A stretch of 64,000 nt of DNA from Chrysomallon squamiferum (GCA_012295275.1 CM022671.1:21824001-21888000), one strand, 5' to 3'. Counted from the stretch's first letter, positions 33,680-51,331 are shown. Notes: generated from the sequence alone by a model not told the origin. Made by a program: numbers and translations.

Positions 33680-34426
33680 ATGAAGGTGCTAGCATTCTGC
33701 ATTGTGCTGCTGTTGTTGCTAGGGTGCGCTCTCATCGGTTCAGCACGTCGCGCTTTCAAGGTGCGTATTTTACCGGGCAATACGAGATGCCACAGAGATG
33801 GAACCATGACAATCTTTATTCACCACAACCGATACGGACGTGTGCATGTTTGGTGGAGTGGATGGTGGGTAAGTAGGTGGTATTTTCGTGTTTAGTTTGC
33901 GCGTTCGAGTGTTTCGTACCGAAAAGTCGTTGATCCAGATCTATGCATCACAGTGCTAGGGAAAGTGATAGCACCCATTTTTGGTGTTTTTTCAGTAGCT
34001 GTTTTCAAACGCGAAAATCCGTTGATATCTCATATTTCATTAATTACATTTAAAAAAAAAAAAAAAAAAGGTGTGTATGTACGTATTATTATTATTATTA
34101 TTATTATTATTATTATTATTTATTAAATAAATAAATATAAAATAAAATATTGGTTCGTTTGTGTATGTTATATTACGTAGTGTATGTTATTTATTTATTT
34201 CTTATTTATTTCTTTGTTTACCTACTTACTATTACAGGTAACATGTAAGAGTTATGTAAGCCGATTTCTGTACGGATGGATACAAGTCTGTAGAGTTATA
34301 AGTCAGACAGGAAGGTTTACTGTTAAATACAATAGCGGCTGGTTCTGTTGGAGAAACTACGACACTATTACATTCGACAAGTGTAAAATAACATCATATC
34401 CCTGTTGGTACAGGTACGGCAAATGA
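33680..34426 (+). CDS. Family gene C1, 125 aa, Trp/Arg-rich; exons 33680-33868, 34238-34426
   Basis: MKVLAFCIVLLLLLGCALIGSA-RRAFKVRILPGNTRCHRDGTMTIFIHHNRYGRVHVWWSGWW|VTCKSYVSRFLYGWIQVCRVISQTGRFTVKYNSGWFCWRNYDTITFDKCKITSYPCWYRYGK*; donor GTAAGT. Confidence 0.88.
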
Positions 34427-36037
34427 TTTAAAGACGTAAAAAAAAAAAGAAATAATAATAATAATAATAACTGCAACGAAGAAAAATAAAGAAATTATGC
34501 ATCCATTTGTTTTGTTTCTCTCTTTTTTCATACTCTTCTGTTATCAGTCTCTCTCTCTCTCTCTCTCTCTCTCTCTCTCTCTCTCTCTCTCTCTCTCTCT
34601 CTCTCTCTCTCTCTCTCTCTCTCTCTCTCTCTCTCTCTCTTTATGGGTCAACCCTAGGTCTATTATTAAGTATAGTAAGATTTTCTTACCGCATTGCAAA
34701 AAGCAGGAAAGGGTGCTATCACAAAACACTAATATGGTGTTAAAAATTGTTAGAAATGGGCACCAGAATTTAACTATGCTCAGGGCATCAACAGAAATTA
34801 ATCCAGCCCTGTATGTGAGTGATTTTTATACATTTCCATGACAAAATACCTGTCACTAACCTCACTGGTTCTATACAAGACAAGGAAAATGAATCTTCCA
34901 TTACACATTTTTAAAAAGTTCTTATAGTCAGTAGTTTTTATTAACGTACGAAGTTAGTCGAAAGGAAAATTACATTCCCATAAAATTTTATTATGAATTT
35001 ATTATTTCTGAAAGCTTTAAATTTCAAGGAAGTACATGAGTTAAACTAATCATCATTTTTAGATGTGTTGTTTATTTATTTATTTATATTTAATGTTATT
35101 ATTTTTCTTTTTATTTACTTAATAAAATAATACTCTGTGAAAGCTTTAAATATGGAAGAAAGATCCCTAACCTCATGTTAAAATTCTTTATTAATTAAAC
35201 TTTAAATATATATACATATATATTTATTTATTTGACTTCTGCAAACAAATGCATAAATTATAAAATTTTCAAAAATCGGAAAAGAAACAATAATGTAATT
35301 CATCAAAGTGTATCATTCTTGGTGATCTAAATGTCAGTTCATAAAAATACTTATCTAGCTTGGTGTTAAATTACTAAGGTAATTAATATGGGAACACTTA
35401 TCAAGTAATACGATAGGACAGACATATTTTATTGACAAGAATAGTAGTAAACGGTAAGAAAAAAAAAAAAAAAAAATTCACGACAAAATATCAAATGAAC
35501 AAACAAAAGACACACTAAAACTACTAATCAATTTTTTCACAGGAATAGACAGGACAGGTGTGAAACACATTAAGTCCAGTATGTTGTACATTACTGATCT
35601 TACTGATAAGTATTAAAAAGCCCACAATAAATAGTAAACGAAAAAAAAAAAAAGAGAAAAGAGAGAAAAAAATCAGGATAAAATATCAAATGACCAGATA
35701 AAAGACACAGGAAAAGTACTGATCAATATTTTCACAGAAATTGATAGGACTGGTGTATGCTAACGATCACACTGACAGAAACAGATAGGACAGGTGACAA
35801 GTATACTGAGTAAATCCAACATGTTGTACTAAATTTCACAATAAAAAAAAAAATAAAAAAAAAAAAAAAAAAAAAAAAAAAAAATAATTAATAAAAATAG
35901 TCAAATGTAATAAAAAAAAATAAAAATAATAATAAATAAATAAAAAAATTAATAAAATAAAATAAAATTCCATTAATACAATAGATAGAAATGGGAACAA
36001 AATATCCAATGAAAAGACATAAGACAATATCTATATT

Positions 36038-36150
36038 TCGCTGGGGTTTGCCTTAAAGCAATCAGTACGCCCTGTTTACGAGACAAAAATTATGGGAGGC
36101 TTTGGAAAGTGTAATGTCGACGGAACCAGGTCAGTCCGCTTTTATCTACT
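36038..36150 (+). pseudogene. 5'-truncated relic of first coding exon of a divergent (F-type) family member
   Basis: SLGFALKQSVRPVYETKIMGGFGKCNVDGTRSVRFY aligns with SLGCAVSGPARDLYEIRILPDETTCYRDGTMSIVY; no ATG or acceptor. Confidence 0.65.
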
Positions 36151-36901
36151 ACTACAACGATAACTGCTAATACCACCATTACAATTATTACTACTATTAC
36201 TATTACCAGTACAATTACTACTACTAATATTAATAATACTGATTCAACTAATGCCAGCACTACAATTGCTACTACTACCATTACCAGTACAATTACTACT
36301 AAAAGAACGATACTTCTGTTTTAGATATGGTTTGATGCATTAGATATTTAATACCACAAAGACAAAATCTGTGATATTTATTCTAATTTTTTATTTAAAT
36401 ACAAGAAAGAGACAGAGAGAATGTGTGTGAAAGAGAGAGAGTGAGAGAGAGAGAGAGAGAGAGAGAGAGAGAGAGAGAGAGAGAGAGAGAGAGAGAGAGA
36501 GAGAGAGAGAGAGAAAGAGAGATAAACTGACCTCACAAGAAACAACAATAACAACACTGATACCAAAAATACAAATCACGACAAAACATCCAGTGAACAC
36601 AGTAAAAATATTGATCAATATTTTCAACAAAAAAAACTGACAATAAATAAAATAAAATAAAATAAACTCCATTAATTCCCAAAAAAAAGAAGAAAAAAAG
36701 AAGAAGATATCAGAACAAACTGTCTAATGAAAGGCAAACGACAGAATATATCTGCAGTAATATTCTGAATAACGCGAAAGATAATGAAGAACGGAATTTA
36801 ATAATTCCCGAATAACCAAGTAAGACAAACTTAATTTTTTCTTCTTCTTCTTTTCTTATCATGGTACACTGTTAAAAAGCAAAATTTGGTTTTGTGCAGA
36901 C

Positions 36902-48854: not shown

Positions 48855-49045
48855 TACAATGATTCTTACACAGACCGTAACTACTACATCTCTTTACCAT
48901 GATTGTTACACAGACTGTAACTACATCTGTTTACGAAGATTGTTACACAGACCGTAACTACATCTCTTTACCACGATTATTACACATACCGCAACTATAT
49001 CTCTTTACCACGATTGTCACACAGACCGTAACTACATCTCTACAG
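48855..49045 (+). repeat. 37-bp minisatellite, about 5 units, upstream of C2
   Basis: Same flanks as the 31705 array but far fewer units. Confidence 0.85.
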
Positions 49046-50496
49046 CTCATTCACTTCGGTATTTCTTGCTGTTAATAAAATCACAAATCGCGTATCTGGT
49101 TTAAAGAGAATAAAAATCTTCATAAACAACAGTGATTTATCATTCAAATAGTTCTATTGTGTTTCTTTCAGTAAAAATCATGGCTTATTTGTTTATTTAT
49201 TTATTTATTTATATTCATTTTTCTTTTTTCTTTCTTCCTTTATTTTCTTTCCTTTTCTTTCCTTTTCTTTTTTTTTTTTTTTTTTTTTTTTTTTTTTTTT
49301 TTTTGCATCAGAACAAAAACAAAATAAATAAATTCATACATACAGAAGATGGGAACAATTTAATTTTTTTTTTTTTTAAAAAAAAAAATTTTTTGTCATT
49401 CAGGAAAACACACACACACACACACACACACACACACACACACACACACACACAAAATAGTTGTAGCTGTAGTATCGTTAGATAGTAGTAGTAGTAATTT
49501 TACCGTAATAGAAGAAGCGGTCGGATAGTAATAATAGTAGTTGTAGTAGTAGCGATAGTAAAAGTAGAAGTAGTAATAATAATAGAAGTTGTAGTAGTAG
49601 CAGTATTAATAGTAGTATTAATAGTAATAATAGAAGTTGTAGTGGTAGCAGTATTAATAATAGTATTAATAGTAATAACAGAAACTGTAGTAGTTGTTGT
49701 AGTAGTCATAATGATATTTTCATGACGTTTTGTGACGTAGTTCTCTGAACATGGCTAGATTTCTTTTAACGTAGGCCTCTTCATCCGAGGTTTTACGGTA
49801 CTTTTAAAAACAAGATAGTATGACGGAATATTTCACATAAACATCCAATGAGAGAATACAATATAAAAAAAAAAAATTAATAAATAAAAAAAAGTAAAAC
49901 CATCAGCGTCGACATGAATAAAAGGACAAAACGAACAACTTCGTGGCATGATTGCTTTCTGAATCGTCAGGTAAATTATACTTGATCTTGCTCTTCATTT
50001 CTACTCTGTTCTACCTTCACAACGCTATTCACTGTTCTAATGCGTGCTCTGGTACACCAGAGGCCGCGTTATAATTAAATACACATCTCTGTGAGAATGA
50101 AATACTGTTATTCCATTCTTCATTTATTATTTCAAACTTTTTGAGTAACTGGATCTAAACTCATAGGCTCATTCACTTGGCTATTTCTTGAACAGGACCA
50201 ATCACTGACTACGGGAAGGTGCATATAAAAATCCCTTATAGTCAATCGCAAGACGGTAAAGATCCTTTTTTGTGCCTTAATTCTTTCGTCCTTAAAACTA
50301 TCTACGACACCATATAACAAATTGTTGTTTGTTGTTTTTGTGGTGGTGGCTCTTTGTATTTCTTCTCTTTTTATTTATTTATTTATTTATATATATATAT
50401 ATATTTTATTTTTTTAACTTTGTCGTTTTTCTTTTTCTTTTTTTATTATTATTATTATTTTTTGACATAAATGTATTTTTCTTTTCTTCTGCAGAC

Positions 50497-51331
50497 ATGA
50501 AGATGCTAGCATTCTGCATTGTGCTGCTGTTGTCGCTAGGGTGCTCTTTCGTCGGTTCGGTACGTCGCGTTTACAGCATGCGTATTTCACCGAAAGATAC
50601 GAAATGTTACAGTGATGGAACCATGAGAGTCGTTTATTACTACTTGGGATATGGACTTGTGTATGCTAACTGGAGTGGAGGAGGGTCGGTAAGTAGGTGG
50701 TATTTTCGTGTTTGGTTTGCGCGTTCGAGTGTTTCGTACCGAAAAGTCGTTGATCCAGATCTATGCATCACAGTGCTAGGGAAAGCGATAGCACCCATTT
50801 TTGGTGTTTTTTTTTCAGTAGCTGTTTTCAAACGCGAAAATCCGTTGATATCTAAATGAGTATATATGATTTTTCTTCCTCATATTTCATTAATTACATT
50901 TAAAAAATAAAATAAAAAGGGTGTGTGTCTGTGTGTATGTACGTATTATAATTATTATTATTATTATTATTATTATCATCATCATCATCATCATCATCAT
51001 CATTATTATTATTATTATTATTATTTATTAAATAAATAAATATAAAATAAAATATTGGTTCGTTTGTGTATGTTATATTATGTAGTGTATGTTATTTATT
51101 TATTTCTTATTTATTTCTTTGTTTACCTACTTACTATTACAGGTAAAATGTCAGAGAGCTTCACTCAAAAAGGTGTACGGATTGATAAACATCTGTCGAG
51201 TTGGCAGCCAGTCAGGAACGTTTTCTATTTCATACCGGAGCGGCTCGGACTGTTGGAGAACCTACGATTCCATTACATTCGACAAGTGTAAAATAACATC
51301 AACTTTCTGTTGGTACAGGTACGGCAAATGA
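50497..51331 (+). CDS. Family gene C2, 126 aa; exons 50497-50688, 51143-51331
   Basis: MKMLAFCIVLLLSLGCSFVGSV-RRVYSMRISPKDTKCYSDGTMRVVYYYLGYGLVYANWSGGGS|VKCQRASLKKVYGLINICRVGSQSGTFSISYRSGSDCWRTYDSITFDKCKITSTFCWYRYGK*. Confidence 0.88.

Follow-up and report, generated by a model that had tools for sequence, protein, structure and literature searches.

Why should two neighbouring copies of one gene differ far more in the parts that encode the mature protein than in the intron lying between those parts? The question is raised by a pair of genes, C1 and C2, in a stretch of 64,000 nucleotides from Chrysomallon squamiferum (GCA_012295275.1 CM022671.1:21824001-21888000; hereafter the window), which carries seven intact copies of one family, arranged in tandem, together with fragments and pseudogenes. 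The array is abundant in tandem repeats. C1 and C2, both intact and in tandem, are predicted to encode a secreted protein with six cysteines; they are spaced 17 kb apart, with paralogue D, one fragment, and one pseudogene between them. The gene models are as follows, with positions counted from the first letter of the window.

33680..33868, + strand: C1 first coding exon, which contains the ATG and encodes a ~21-residue signal peptide plus the N-terminal half of the mature protein; AG acceptor 2 nt 5′ of the ATG, GTAAGT donor
33869..34237, + strand: C1 intron between the coding exons (intron 2)
34238..34426, + strand: C1 second coding exon, including the stop codon
50497..50688, + strand: C2 first coding exon, with one extra codon relative to C1; exact match to contigs of runs X1 and X2
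50689..51142, + strand: C2 intron between the coding exons
51143..51331, + strand: C2 second coding exon, including the stop codon; exact match to contigs of runs X1, X2, and X3
18833..19659, + strand: paralogue A (exons 18833-19021 and 19459-19659), serving as outgroup and control
26031..27081, + strand: paralogue B (exons 26031-26219 and 26881-27081), a recent duplicate of A; control pair
39291..40606, + strand: paralogue D (exons 39291-39479 and 40406-40606), between C1 and C2
54012..54943, + strand: paralogue E1 (exons 54012-54191 and 54752-54943)
Exons 59545-59724 and 60291-60482: paralogue E2, twin of E1

Both C1 and C2 possess a canonical GT..AG, phase-0 intron and an intact open frame (125 and 126 codons, respectively), and their proteins align without gaps except for one codon. 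Splicing of C2 proceeds as predicted, with one 130-nt contig of run X8 skipping the intron and connecting 50687 to 51142. The six mature cysteines are invariant across all seven intact paralogues.

The two genes lie in duplicated blocks, delimited by blastn self-comparison and MAFFT windows.

28322..34581, + strand: duplicated block 1, carrying C1
35662 to 36092: weaker continuation of block 1, beyond an insertion of ~1.1 kb
45565..51485, + strand: duplicated block 2, carrying C2, with a weaker continuation to 51910
33328..33335, + strand: TATA-like motif 5′ of C1, read from the sequence; candidate promoter
50224-50231: TATA-like motif 5′ of C2, counterpart of the C1 motif; candidate promoter

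The duplicated unit is thus ~6 kb long, with a non-coding divergence of 4-7%. Self-comparison by blastn gives colinear HSPs of 80-94% identity including gaps, and non-coding DNA is 95-99% identical in MAFFT windows; the 300 nt around the TATA-like motif, which may mark the promoters of the two genes, are 97-98% identical. Identity is low in two non-coding patches: the T-rich simple-sequence tract of intron 1 (33545-33640), where C1 and C2 align at only 64% and which adjoins an indel of ~84 nt, and the region ~150 nt beyond the stop codon, where block homology fades at a (CT)n tract and the ~1.1 kb insertion in block 1. Slippage and indels, as opposed to point substitutions, account for the differences in both patches.

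The sequence-only reading had proposed that the mature-coding exons of this pair outpace their own introns, and the counts bear this out: 79 of 312 mature-coding bases differ (25.3%), as against 14 of 369 in intron 2 (3.8%) and 56 of 1323 in the pooled non-coding DNA (Fisher P=9e-27 for the latter comparison). Mature-coding exons therefore diverge about six times more than introns and flanks. By region, differences amount to 35/126 in the mature part of the first coding exon, 44/189 in the second coding exon, 6/63 in the signal peptide (9.5%), 33/820 in the 5′ flank (4.0%), and 9/134 in the 3′ flank. The near-identity of intron 2, also claimed, holds too, with 2 substitutions plus indels (poly-T length among them) in the first 160 nt and 1 difference in the last 100 nt; the first 25 nt contain none, and there is no rise toward the exon borders. 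In the first coding exon, changes continue up to the final codon, and in the second they begin again at base 5; the 25% divergence is restricted to mature-coding bases and is sharp at every exon border. At the amino-acid level, 33 of the 64 columns of the first coding exon are identical (16/21 in the signal peptide, 17/42 in the mature part); the earlier count of 17 identical mature residues was right, although these lie among 42 aligned positions rather than 41. Its count of 37/62 for the second coding exon was reproduced exactly, as was the retention of every mature cysteine.

That the changes are mostly non-synonymous is likewise confirmed, with a mature dN/dS of 2.5 (NG86) to 3.5 (maximum likelihood [ML]) and a bootstrap P(dN<=dS) of 0.0036. 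NG86 counts are 70.7 non-synonymous differences over 247.5 sites and 8.3 synonymous differences over 64.5 sites (Fisher P=0.0047). Codon positions 1/2/3 carry 34/30/15 of the mature differences, codons that differ at one base only comprise 32 nonsynonymous and 5 synonymous cases, and not one of the 19 four-fold sites differs. A codon branch model written for this analysis assigns an omega of 3.34 to the C1 and C2 tips and of 1.00 to the rest of the family; tested against omega=1, the likelihood-ratio statistic is 9.53 (P=0.002), and against one omega shared by all branches it is 6.66 (P=0.0099). The pair does not, then, display the combination of a dN/dS <=1 and an exon dS greatly exceeding intron divergence, which had been named beforehand as speaking against selection. 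With A, B, D, and E1 taken to polarise them, the mature changes divide into 35 derived in C1, 30 derived in C2, 8 ambiguous, and 6 that are neither; both copies have changed, by roughly equal numbers of derived changes. The control duplicate pairs are without an exon excess: A and B differ by 1.6-3.5% in exons and 4.6% in the intron (dN/dS 0.3), and E1 and E2 at 0/309 mature-coding bases and 6/558 intron bases (1.1%).

Variants of C2 in other individuals were drawn from pooled contigs of eight coded runs from three studies, a comparison that covers C2. With contigs taken at >=95% identity, such that further C2-like copies rather than alleles could be the source, there are 20 exon variants at 19 sites, of which 18 are nonsynonymous and 2 synonymous, an excess that alone is not significant (binomial P=0.18). 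The 204 covered bases of the C2 intron hold 2 substitution sites and 2 more at the poly-T edge. At seven C2 variant sites, the other allele is the C1 base, and at four of these it is also the outgroup base; thus, some C2-derived changes are still segregating. In run X6, two distinct C2-type contigs of similar depth span 50518-50644, seemingly two alleles of C2 itself.

The exon excess is, on balance, probably explained by diversifying selection after a recent block duplication, with C1 and C2 being intact tandem copies: the duplication would have yielded the two genes, and diversifying (positive) selection would then have fixed amino-acid changes in both. We infer selection to be the cause, over a mutational or recombinational process. 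Exon dS is 0.08-0.16, depending on method, against a non-coding divergence of 0.04-0.07; silent divergence is therefore some 2-3 times intron divergence, a modest but real excess (NG86, rounded: 8/64 silent sites versus 56/1323 pooled non-coding sites, P=0.007). By ML, the C1 and C2 exons are separated by a neutral distance of 0.117 per nt, with a profile-likelihood interval of ~0.04-0.24; a distance fixed at 0.06 survives the test (P=0.18), one fixed at 0.04 is at the margin of rejection (P=0.048), and one fixed at 0.02 is rejected (P=0.005). Silent sites carry little information in this family, the codons that differ whilst preserving their amino acid numbering 5/54 for C1-C2, 6/53 for C1-A, and 7/55 for C2-A. 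The interval leaves room for older exons, for donors beyond the window, or for exon-biased mutation.

Were the exons old, the two genes would be older paralogues, or else divergent alleles that were captured, and recurrent gene conversion or unequal crossing-over would have homogenised their introns and flanks. We regard as unlikely this MHC-style intron homogenisation, wherein selection for different proteins purges the tracts that enter mature-coding parts. The neutral-distance interval, extending up to ~0.24, makes exons 2-4 times older than the flanks compatible with the data; exon silent divergence does exceed the 0.04 of the intron, dN between C1 and C2 (0.36) equals that between the C genes and A (0.34), and a tandem, repeat-rich array could promote exchange. 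Neutral distances >=0.28, near the C-A non-coding level of ~0.3-0.36, are however rejected (P<=0.018), and the unchanged four-fold sites and the several C2-derived changes still polymorphic also argue against old exons. Homogenisation would, moreover, require four tract ends to fall a few bases at most from the exon borders, where intron divergence does not rise, and selection for protein diversity would be needed anyway. The exons themselves share a history, as follows from the same 4-codon deletion common to the second coding exons of C1 and C2, from the 91.8% identity of the final 61 alignment columns of that exon, and from the 90.5% identity of the signal peptide.

It is doubtful that exon-limited conversion, by which short tracts from divergent paralogues outside the window replaced mature-exon parts of C1, C2, or both after the recent duplication, produced the pattern. 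The family is large and tandem, with at least seven intact copies plus fragments in the window; the silent differences at codons 52 and 87 have both states among the paralogues, and, in its second coding exon, C2 matches D perfectly over 20 nt. Within the 64-kb window, however, no paralogue matches the mature exons of C1 or C2 as a donor: the closest to the mature part of the first exon is A (73.8% to C2, 69.0% to C1), such that none exceeds 74%, and the best values for the whole second coding exon are 78.8% (C1-A) and 76.7% (C2-E2 and C2-C1). Exact matches of the C1 and C2 exons to other paralogues in the window never exceed 24 nt, and a max-run permutation test of C1 or C2 against A, B, D, and E1 detected no conversion fragment in any pair (all P>0.17). 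Donors with the background properties of the family (omega ~1, dS 0.2-0.4) would add many more silent changes than the 5 clear ones, and imported paralogous sequence would not give the observed codon-position bias.

One candidate tract had been singled out earlier, namely the VYYYLGYG of C2, which does match D; as a sign of conversion from D, though, the match fails. This motif or a close form of it is common to A, B, D, and C2 and is hence ancestral, C1 being the derived copy there, and within it C2 and D differ at 4 of 27 bases, 3 of them silent.

Exon-biased germline mutation has been proposed for conopeptides, and to our knowledge it has no known mechanism. Applied here, it would concentrate mutation in the mature-coding exons and leave selection merely as a filter keeping the cysteines and core, for which we see only a slim chance. 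Both dN and dS exceed intron divergence, and there are six codons with differences at every position, against ~1.7 expected (binomial estimate). Transitions and transversions, at 28:19 in non-coding DNA, shift to 29:50 in the exons (P=0.016), and this loss of transition bias is compatible with selection and also with a different mutational process. For conotoxins, Dn and Ds are each reported to be much higher in the mature exon than in other exons (PMC3862624). Mutation bias alone, however, gives a dN/dS of ~1, not 2.5-3.5 (P=0.002-0.005), and none of the four-fold sites has changed; the A/B and E1/E2 pairs of the same array lack an exon excess, and nothing in the sequence points to such a mechanism.

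Highly heterozygous marine invertebrate genomes often give duplicated haplotypes, and the independent runs cover C2 alone, yet it is very improbable that the assembler set two alleles or haplotypes of a single locus in tandem as C1 and C2, given the 17 kb between them with its D copy, fragment, and pseudogene, the large indels separating the blocks, and the two apparent C2 alleles of run X6; the exon/intron contrast would in that case persist, merely as an allelic one.

Diversifying selection on C1 and C2 can be set beside several systems with accelerated evolution, and the expected resemblance to conotoxin, snake-venom, and antimicrobial-peptide genes is found in divergence, dN/dS, cysteine framework, and tandem family structure. 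The MgCRP-I genes of mussels are described as a multigene family of secreted cysteine-rich products with a conserved signal region, a hypervariable mature region, invariant cysteines, and net positive charge, shaped by gene duplication and positive selection in the mature region (PMC4558851); myticin-type mussel cysteine-rich peptide genes are reported to share these traits (PMC7356231, PMC3164099). C1 and C2 are like both in their conserved signal, variable mature part with fixed cysteines, positive charge, and duplication with selection, but no sequence relation to them was found, nor any Pfam match. The C1/C2 mature protein, at ~104 residues, is also much larger, the clam homologue is predicted to fold as a beta-sandwich of 7 strands and not as a small knotted peptide, and C1 and C2 have two coding exons that are both hypervariable.

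In conotoxin genes, introns are conserved within a superfamily, and the mature exon has the highest Dn, with Ds also raised (PMC3862624); in C1 and C2, dN and, modestly, dS likewise stand above intron divergence. C1 and C2 encode no venom peptide, however, and are unrelated in sequence; conotoxin introns exceed 3 kb, against 0.37-0.45 kb here, and conotoxin exons correspond to signal, pro, and mature regions, whereas the first coding exon of C1 and C2 encodes the signal peptide together with half of the mature protein. Snake-venom PLA2 genes are said to provide the classic exon-versus-intron result. In the accelerated evolution of snake-venom genes (PLA2, three-finger toxins, ASSET), coding sequence is reported to outpace non-coding sequence in tandem genes for secreted proteins (PMC6062510, PMC2711939). 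Taxon, fold, and function differ from those of C1 and C2, and segment switching is not seen in this pair, which aligns gap-free save one codon.

Relatives of the family were found only among bivalve proteins (profile of second coding exons, E=3e-6 to 6e-4), all uncharacterised:

DPMN_085660, Dreissena polymorpha
LOC123525465, Mercenaria mercenaria
LOC132752747, Ruditapes philippinarum

At 127-139 aa they belong to the same length class as C1 and C2, and they share with them a signal peptide as well as cysteines and core motifs that align over both halves; the clam proteins differ in carrying additional cysteines close to the N-terminus, and identity is only ~25-44%. The literature searched makes no mention of six identifiers for the bivalve relatives. 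No Pfam family scores above the gathering threshold for the four C1/C2 exon translations, nor above threshold for the five homologues P0004-P0008. The modelled protein, the clam homologue P0005, has a mean pLDDT of 82.7 and 7 strands; its best Foldseek E-value is 0.02, and its best VIA Z is 7.8 (78 residues, rmsd 3.4), which lies below the trust level of 8 given for the tool. From this homologue, an Ig-like beta-sandwich is a tentative prediction for the fold of the family.

C1 and C2 have both shifted to a strongly cationic, Trp-rich composition, with K+R versus D+E at 18/3 in C1 and 17/5 in C2, compared with 14/8 in A; C1 has 8 Trp. Hints of a host-defence role are indirect and confined to the signal peptide and the net cationic charge.

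The pattern in C1 and C2 is likely one of diversifying selection, of a kind already known from venom and antimicrobial-peptide genes; here, a recent duplicate pair allowed the contrast to be measured directly, with the intron of the same gene as the reference. The signal peptide, the kept disulfide framework, the predicted Ig-like beta-sandwich of the clam homologue, and the cationic, Trp-rich shift together suggest that the proteins may act outside the cell on a fast-changing partner, for example microbes.

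A tblastn comparison of the C1 and C2 products with the window, a stretch of eukaryotic DNA that has a G+C content of about 31%, is rich in microsatellites and 37-nt minisatellite arrays, and holds no long bacterial-style ORFs, reveals a tandem family of small genes, all on the plus strand save one copy. Seven copies are intact and share one gene structure: an AG acceptor lies 2 nt upstream of the ATG, the first coding exon (180–192 nt) encodes the signal peptide together with the mature protein's N-terminal half, and a phase-0 GT..AG intron (intron 2) separates it from a second coding exon of 189–201 nt. 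The region singled out by the sequence-only reading runs exactly from the ATG of C1 to the stop codon of C2.

Members of the gene family in the window (first coding exon, second coding exon)
18833–19021, 19459–19659, plus strand: intact copy A
26031–26219, 26881–27081, plus strand: intact copy B
33680–33868, 34238–34426, plus strand: intact copy C1
39291–39479, 40406–40606, plus strand: intact copy D
50497–50688, 51143–51331, plus strand: intact copy C2
54012–54191, 54752–54943, plus strand: intact copy E1
59545–59724, 60291–60482, plus strand: intact copy E2
45063–45263, minus strand: A-type second-coding-exon fragment that is 98% identical to A and stops prematurely near its end
41883–42041, plus strand: A-type second-coding-exon fragment with a (GA)n tract in place of its 5′ part
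13640–14349 and 21483–21608: further divergent members or fragments, about 30%–40% identical in protein to C1/C2
36035–36151, 36902–36946, 37201–37263, 42774–42845, 56053–56139, 57841–57891, 61571–61657: matches to a second, more distant subfamily

For the two A-type fragments, the search turned up no first coding exon to go with them. The more distant subfamily, whose signal peptide starts MKSLA, is interleaved among the main genes, and many of its matches are probably pseudogenes because several have in-frame stops. E1 and E2 are three codons shorter than the other copies in the signal/N-terminal region and end at a TAA three residues early, and thus lack the C-terminal YGK common to A, B, C1, C2, and D. 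Minisatellite arrays with a 37-nt (at times 40-nt) unit (31658–32259, 37492–38592, 42949–43662, 48769–49129, and 52515–53025) sit around 1.4–2 kb upstream of several gene units and may have been a substrate for the unequal crossing-over behind the tandem family. The upstream non-coding DNA of C1 (32759–33460) is 82%–84% identical to that of E1/E2 (53231–53841 and 58573–59309) and 71% identical to that of A/B, whereas the mature exons of C1 are nearer to A than to E; the array therefore has a mosaic history.

C1 and C2 lie in colinear duplicated blocks (about 28322–34581 against 45565–51485 by blastn self-comparison, the similarity trailing on more weakly to 36092 and 51910). When 32087–35000 is aligned with 48853–51800 by MAFFT, 100-column windows of non-coding DNA are mostly 95%–99% identical, whereas mature-coding windows are 66%–72% identical.

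Differences between C1 and C2 by partition
5′ flank, 32636–33460: 33/820, 4.0%
Signal peptide: 6/63, 9.5%
Mature part of first coding exon: 35/126, 27.8%
Intron 2: 14/369, 3.8%
Second coding exon: 44/189, 23.3%
3′ flank: 9/134, 6.7%

The transition is sharp at the exon boundaries. Differences persist through the first coding exon to its final codon and resume at base 5 of the second, and in intron 2 there are none in the first 25 nt, two in the first 160 (as the sequence-only reading had estimated) and one in the last 100. That reading's counts by hand of shared mature residues also hold, at 17 of 42 aligned in the first coding exon (33 of 64 columns with the signal peptide included) and 37 of 62 in the second, with all six mature cysteines retained in both copies. 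Its description of the non-coding DNA as near-identical fits the flanks and intron 2 but not the T-rich simple-sequence tract of intron 1, the intron upstream of the ATG (33545–33640; 64% in the C1/C2 alignment, beside an indel of about 84 nt), nor the DNA more than about 150 nt past the stop, where a (CT)n tract and some 1.1 kb of inserted sequence end the homology; these dissimilar stretches are the product of slippage and indels, not substitutions. The 84 nt or so at 33460–33545 are non-repetitive sequence present in C1 and missing in C2.

Divergence of the mature exons is driven by replacement. Across 104 mature codons, differences at codon positions 1, 2, and 3 number 34, 30, and 15; among codons with a single difference, 32 are nonsynonymous and five synonymous, and none of the 19 four-fold sites with identical first two bases differs. 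The NG86 counts (70.7 nonsynonymous differences over 247.5 sites, 8.3 synonymous over 64.5) place dN above dS (Fisher P = 0.0047; bootstrap P(dN ≤ dS) = 0.0036).

Pairwise estimates for the C1/C2 mature region
NG86: dN 0.359, dS 0.142, omega 2.5
ML: dN 0.369, dS 0.106, omega 3.5
LWL85: dN 0.348, dS 0.077, omega 4.5

The first coding exon is the more extreme, with omega of 3.5–6.6, against 1.7–1.9 (NG86, ML) or 5.4 (LWL85) for the second. Our own GY94-type codon model, used in place of PAML or HyPhy on the tree ((C1,C2),((A,B),E1),D), puts omega at 3.34 for the tips C1 and C2 and at 1.00 for the rest of the tree, with likelihood-ratio statistics of 9.53 against omega = 1 (P = 0.002) and 6.66 against a single omega (P = 0.0099). 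The positive selection proposed from the sequence is supported as the likely cause. When polarised by A, B, D, and E1, 35 differences are derived in C1 and 30 in C2, eight are ambiguous and six match neither: both copies have left an A-like ancestor. They share a derived 4-codon deletion in the second coding exon, are 91.8% identical over the last 61 alignment columns of that exon and 90.5% identical in the signal peptide; by these common derived features both exon sets are C-type. The pattern is one of fast divergence of the mature protein, driven by replacements, in C1 and C2 alike since a recent duplication.

Two other recent duplicate pairs in the array behave normally, unlike C1/C2. A and B differ by 1.6%–3.5% in exons and 4.6% in the intron, with dN/dS of 0.3, and E1 and E2 differ at 0 of 309 exon and 6 of 558 intron positions. 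Among the A-type copies (A, B, and the minus-strand fragment), exons are 96%–98% identical and adjacent non-coding DNA is less so (72%–82% over the first 40 nt of the 3′ UTR, with a difference of 12% between the 5′ flanks of A and B); this pattern, the opposite of that in C1/C2, suggests constraint or exon-biased homogenisation in the A subfamily.

Three alternatives to this reading together take roughly a third of the probability: that the exons are older and the non-coding DNA around them has been homogenised, that the exons were converted from donors not seen here, or that mutation is biased towards exons. Part of what sustains them is a modest excess of silent change in exons over introns. 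Silent divergence is 0.08–0.16 depending on method and non-coding divergence 0.04–0.07; in rounded NG86 counts, 8 of 64 silent sites differ against 56 of 1323 non-coding (P = 0.007), and the five unambiguous silent changes are about twice the expectation. Silent sites carry little information in this family: where the amino acid is kept, 5 of 54 codons differ in the C1–C2 comparison, 6 of 53 in C1–A, and 7 of 55 in C2–A. A profile likelihood over the neutral C1–C2 distance per nucleotide shows the range that the exons tolerate.

Neutral C1–C2 distance, with P and omega on the tips
0.02: P = 0.005, omega 21.1
0.04: P = 0.048, omega 10.2
0.06: P = 0.18, omega 6.7
0.117 (maximum likelihood): omega 3.3
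0.24: P = 0.059, omega 1.6
0.28: P = 0.018, omega 1.4
0.36: P = 0.0013, omega 1.1

The age of the exons is compatible with that of the flanks, and an age up to about fourfold greater would also fit; the split from A, with no more than about 71% identity left in the non-coding DNA, is older than the exons. Had old exons been shielded from homogenisation over a long period, divergence should climb towards the exons, and intron 2 shows no such rise. The alternatives are also sustained by a lost transition bias. Transitions to transversions stand at 29:50 in the mature exons, with 11:33 in the second coding exon, against 28:19 in pooled non-coding DNA, where intron 2 has 11:3 and the 5′ flank 17:16 (Fisher P = 0.016 for exons against pooled non-coding DNA); selection may have favoured radical changes, or the mutational input may differ.

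As for conversion, the paralogue search covered the 64-kb window rather than the whole genome, which leaves room for donors elsewhere. Within the window, the best match of the first-exon mature part of C1 or C2 to another paralogue is 73.8% at most, over the entire second coding exon C1 comes closest to A (78.8%) and C2 to E2 and C1 (both 76.7%), and exact exon matches to other paralogues extend to no more than 24 nt in the signal peptide and 20 nt in the mature part. A GENECONV-like test (longest run of matching polymorphic sites, 2000 permutations) found no significant fragment between C1 or C2 and A, B, D, or E1 (all P > 0.17); only C1–C2 in the signal peptide was positive (P = 0.033). The motif VYYYLGYG, offered earlier as a sign of conversion of C2 from D, fails as a clue: A and B have IVYYYKGYG, D IVYYYLGYG, and C2 VVYYYLGYG, so that the motif is ancestral and the IFIHHNRYG of C1 derived, and C2 and D differ at 4 of 27 bases within it, three of them silent. 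Relaxed constraint or pseudogenisation of C1, whose frame, splice sites, and cysteines are all intact, is rejected because neutral drift cannot lift dN (0.36) over neutral divergence (0.04–0.07).

Variation at C2 is visible in eight sequencing runs (X1–X8) from one organism and three studies. The contigs of X1, possibly the source sample, and of X2 are identical to the C2 exons, and so are those of X3 where covered; those of X4–X8 carry variants. Pooled over the runs, 381 nt of exon contain 20 variants (18 nonsynonymous, two synonymous) at 19 sites, against two substitution sites and two further sites at a poly-T edge in 204 covered intron bases; the uncovered simple repeats at 50359–50468 and 50893–51135 carry no weight. 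Density is higher in exons (P = 0.01, or 0.08 with the poly-T sites), and, taken by itself, the nonsynonymous excess among these variants falls short of significance (P = 0.18). Seven variant sites have the C1 base as their other allele, and at four of these the outgroup shares that base; some of the change specific to C2 is therefore still segregating. Two C2-type contigs of similar depth in X6 argue that C2 is a locus of its own. In X8, where coverage is confined to exons, a 130-nt contig links 50687 directly to 51142 and so leaves out exactly the predicted intron; C2 is thus spliced as predicted, provided that X8 is RNA, a run type guessed in its listing.

Pfam gave no family for the C1/C2 exon translations or for the five homologues described below, and a homologous-protein search with the second coding exon of C2 and longer proteins gave no match. 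Eight proteins at E ≤ 0.001 came out of a search of 1.84 billion representatives with a profile built on six second-exon translations. Three long repeat proteins (P0001–P0003) were not counted as relatives, the profile matching only short stretches of them repeatedly. The other five have 85–139 residues and comprise one uncharacterised protein each from Dreissena polymorpha, Mercenaria mercenaria, and Ruditapes philippinarum, and two unnamed proteins from Logan assemblies. Four align over both halves, including signal peptide and cysteines, and the 85-residue one lacks the N-terminal part. A literature search with the gene and locus names and the protein accessions of the three named homologues found no mention of them. 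The Mercenaria protein (P0005) is predicted by AlphaFold2, from the homologue alignment, to fold as a 7-strand beta-sandwich (pLDDT 82.7). As a query it gave no usable match in the ESM Atlas, its model had no Foldseek match in the PDB at E ≤ 0.001 (best E = 0.02), and a wide VIA search returned generic Ig-like domains (best Z = 7.8, below the trust level of 8). C1/C2 differences fall at 32 of 54 strand and 17 of 39 loop positions of this prediction, with the C-terminal third spared. Both proteins are more cationic and aromatic than their relatives (K+R/D+E of 18/3 in C1 and 17/5 in C2 against 14/8 in A, with eight Trp in C1), and a role in extracellular interaction or defence is conceivable for them.

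Accelerated divergence of mature proteins is already described for conotoxins (PMC3862624), snake-venom genes (PMC6062510, PMC2711939), and mussel cysteine-rich peptides (PMC4558851). The pattern in C1/C2 is like these, but the protein family itself was not previously described: an uncharacterised family of about 125 residues, with named relatives only in bivalves, joins the short list in which exons outrun introns. C1 and C2 form an unusually clean natural experiment, with introns and flanks dating the duplication at 4%–7% neutral divergence. About 70 amino-acid-changing substitutions, evenly split between the copies, have accrued since, and the replacement rate is therefore around 6–9 times that of the introns. 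Because its genes are short and in tandem, and public runs show its variation, the locus lends itself to separating selection from conversion and from exon-biased mutation. It is a long shot that this is a secreted Ig-like beta-sandwich family diversified by a germline process aimed at the mature-coding exons; if so, that process would raise silent and replacement change alike and erase transition bias, hypervariable alleles and paralogues would arise while introns diverge by about 4%, and invertebrates would thereby have a counterpart to the targeted diversification of immune genes. If the proteins are host-defence or recognition molecules, the locus would widen the picture of individual-level effector diversity in molluscs.
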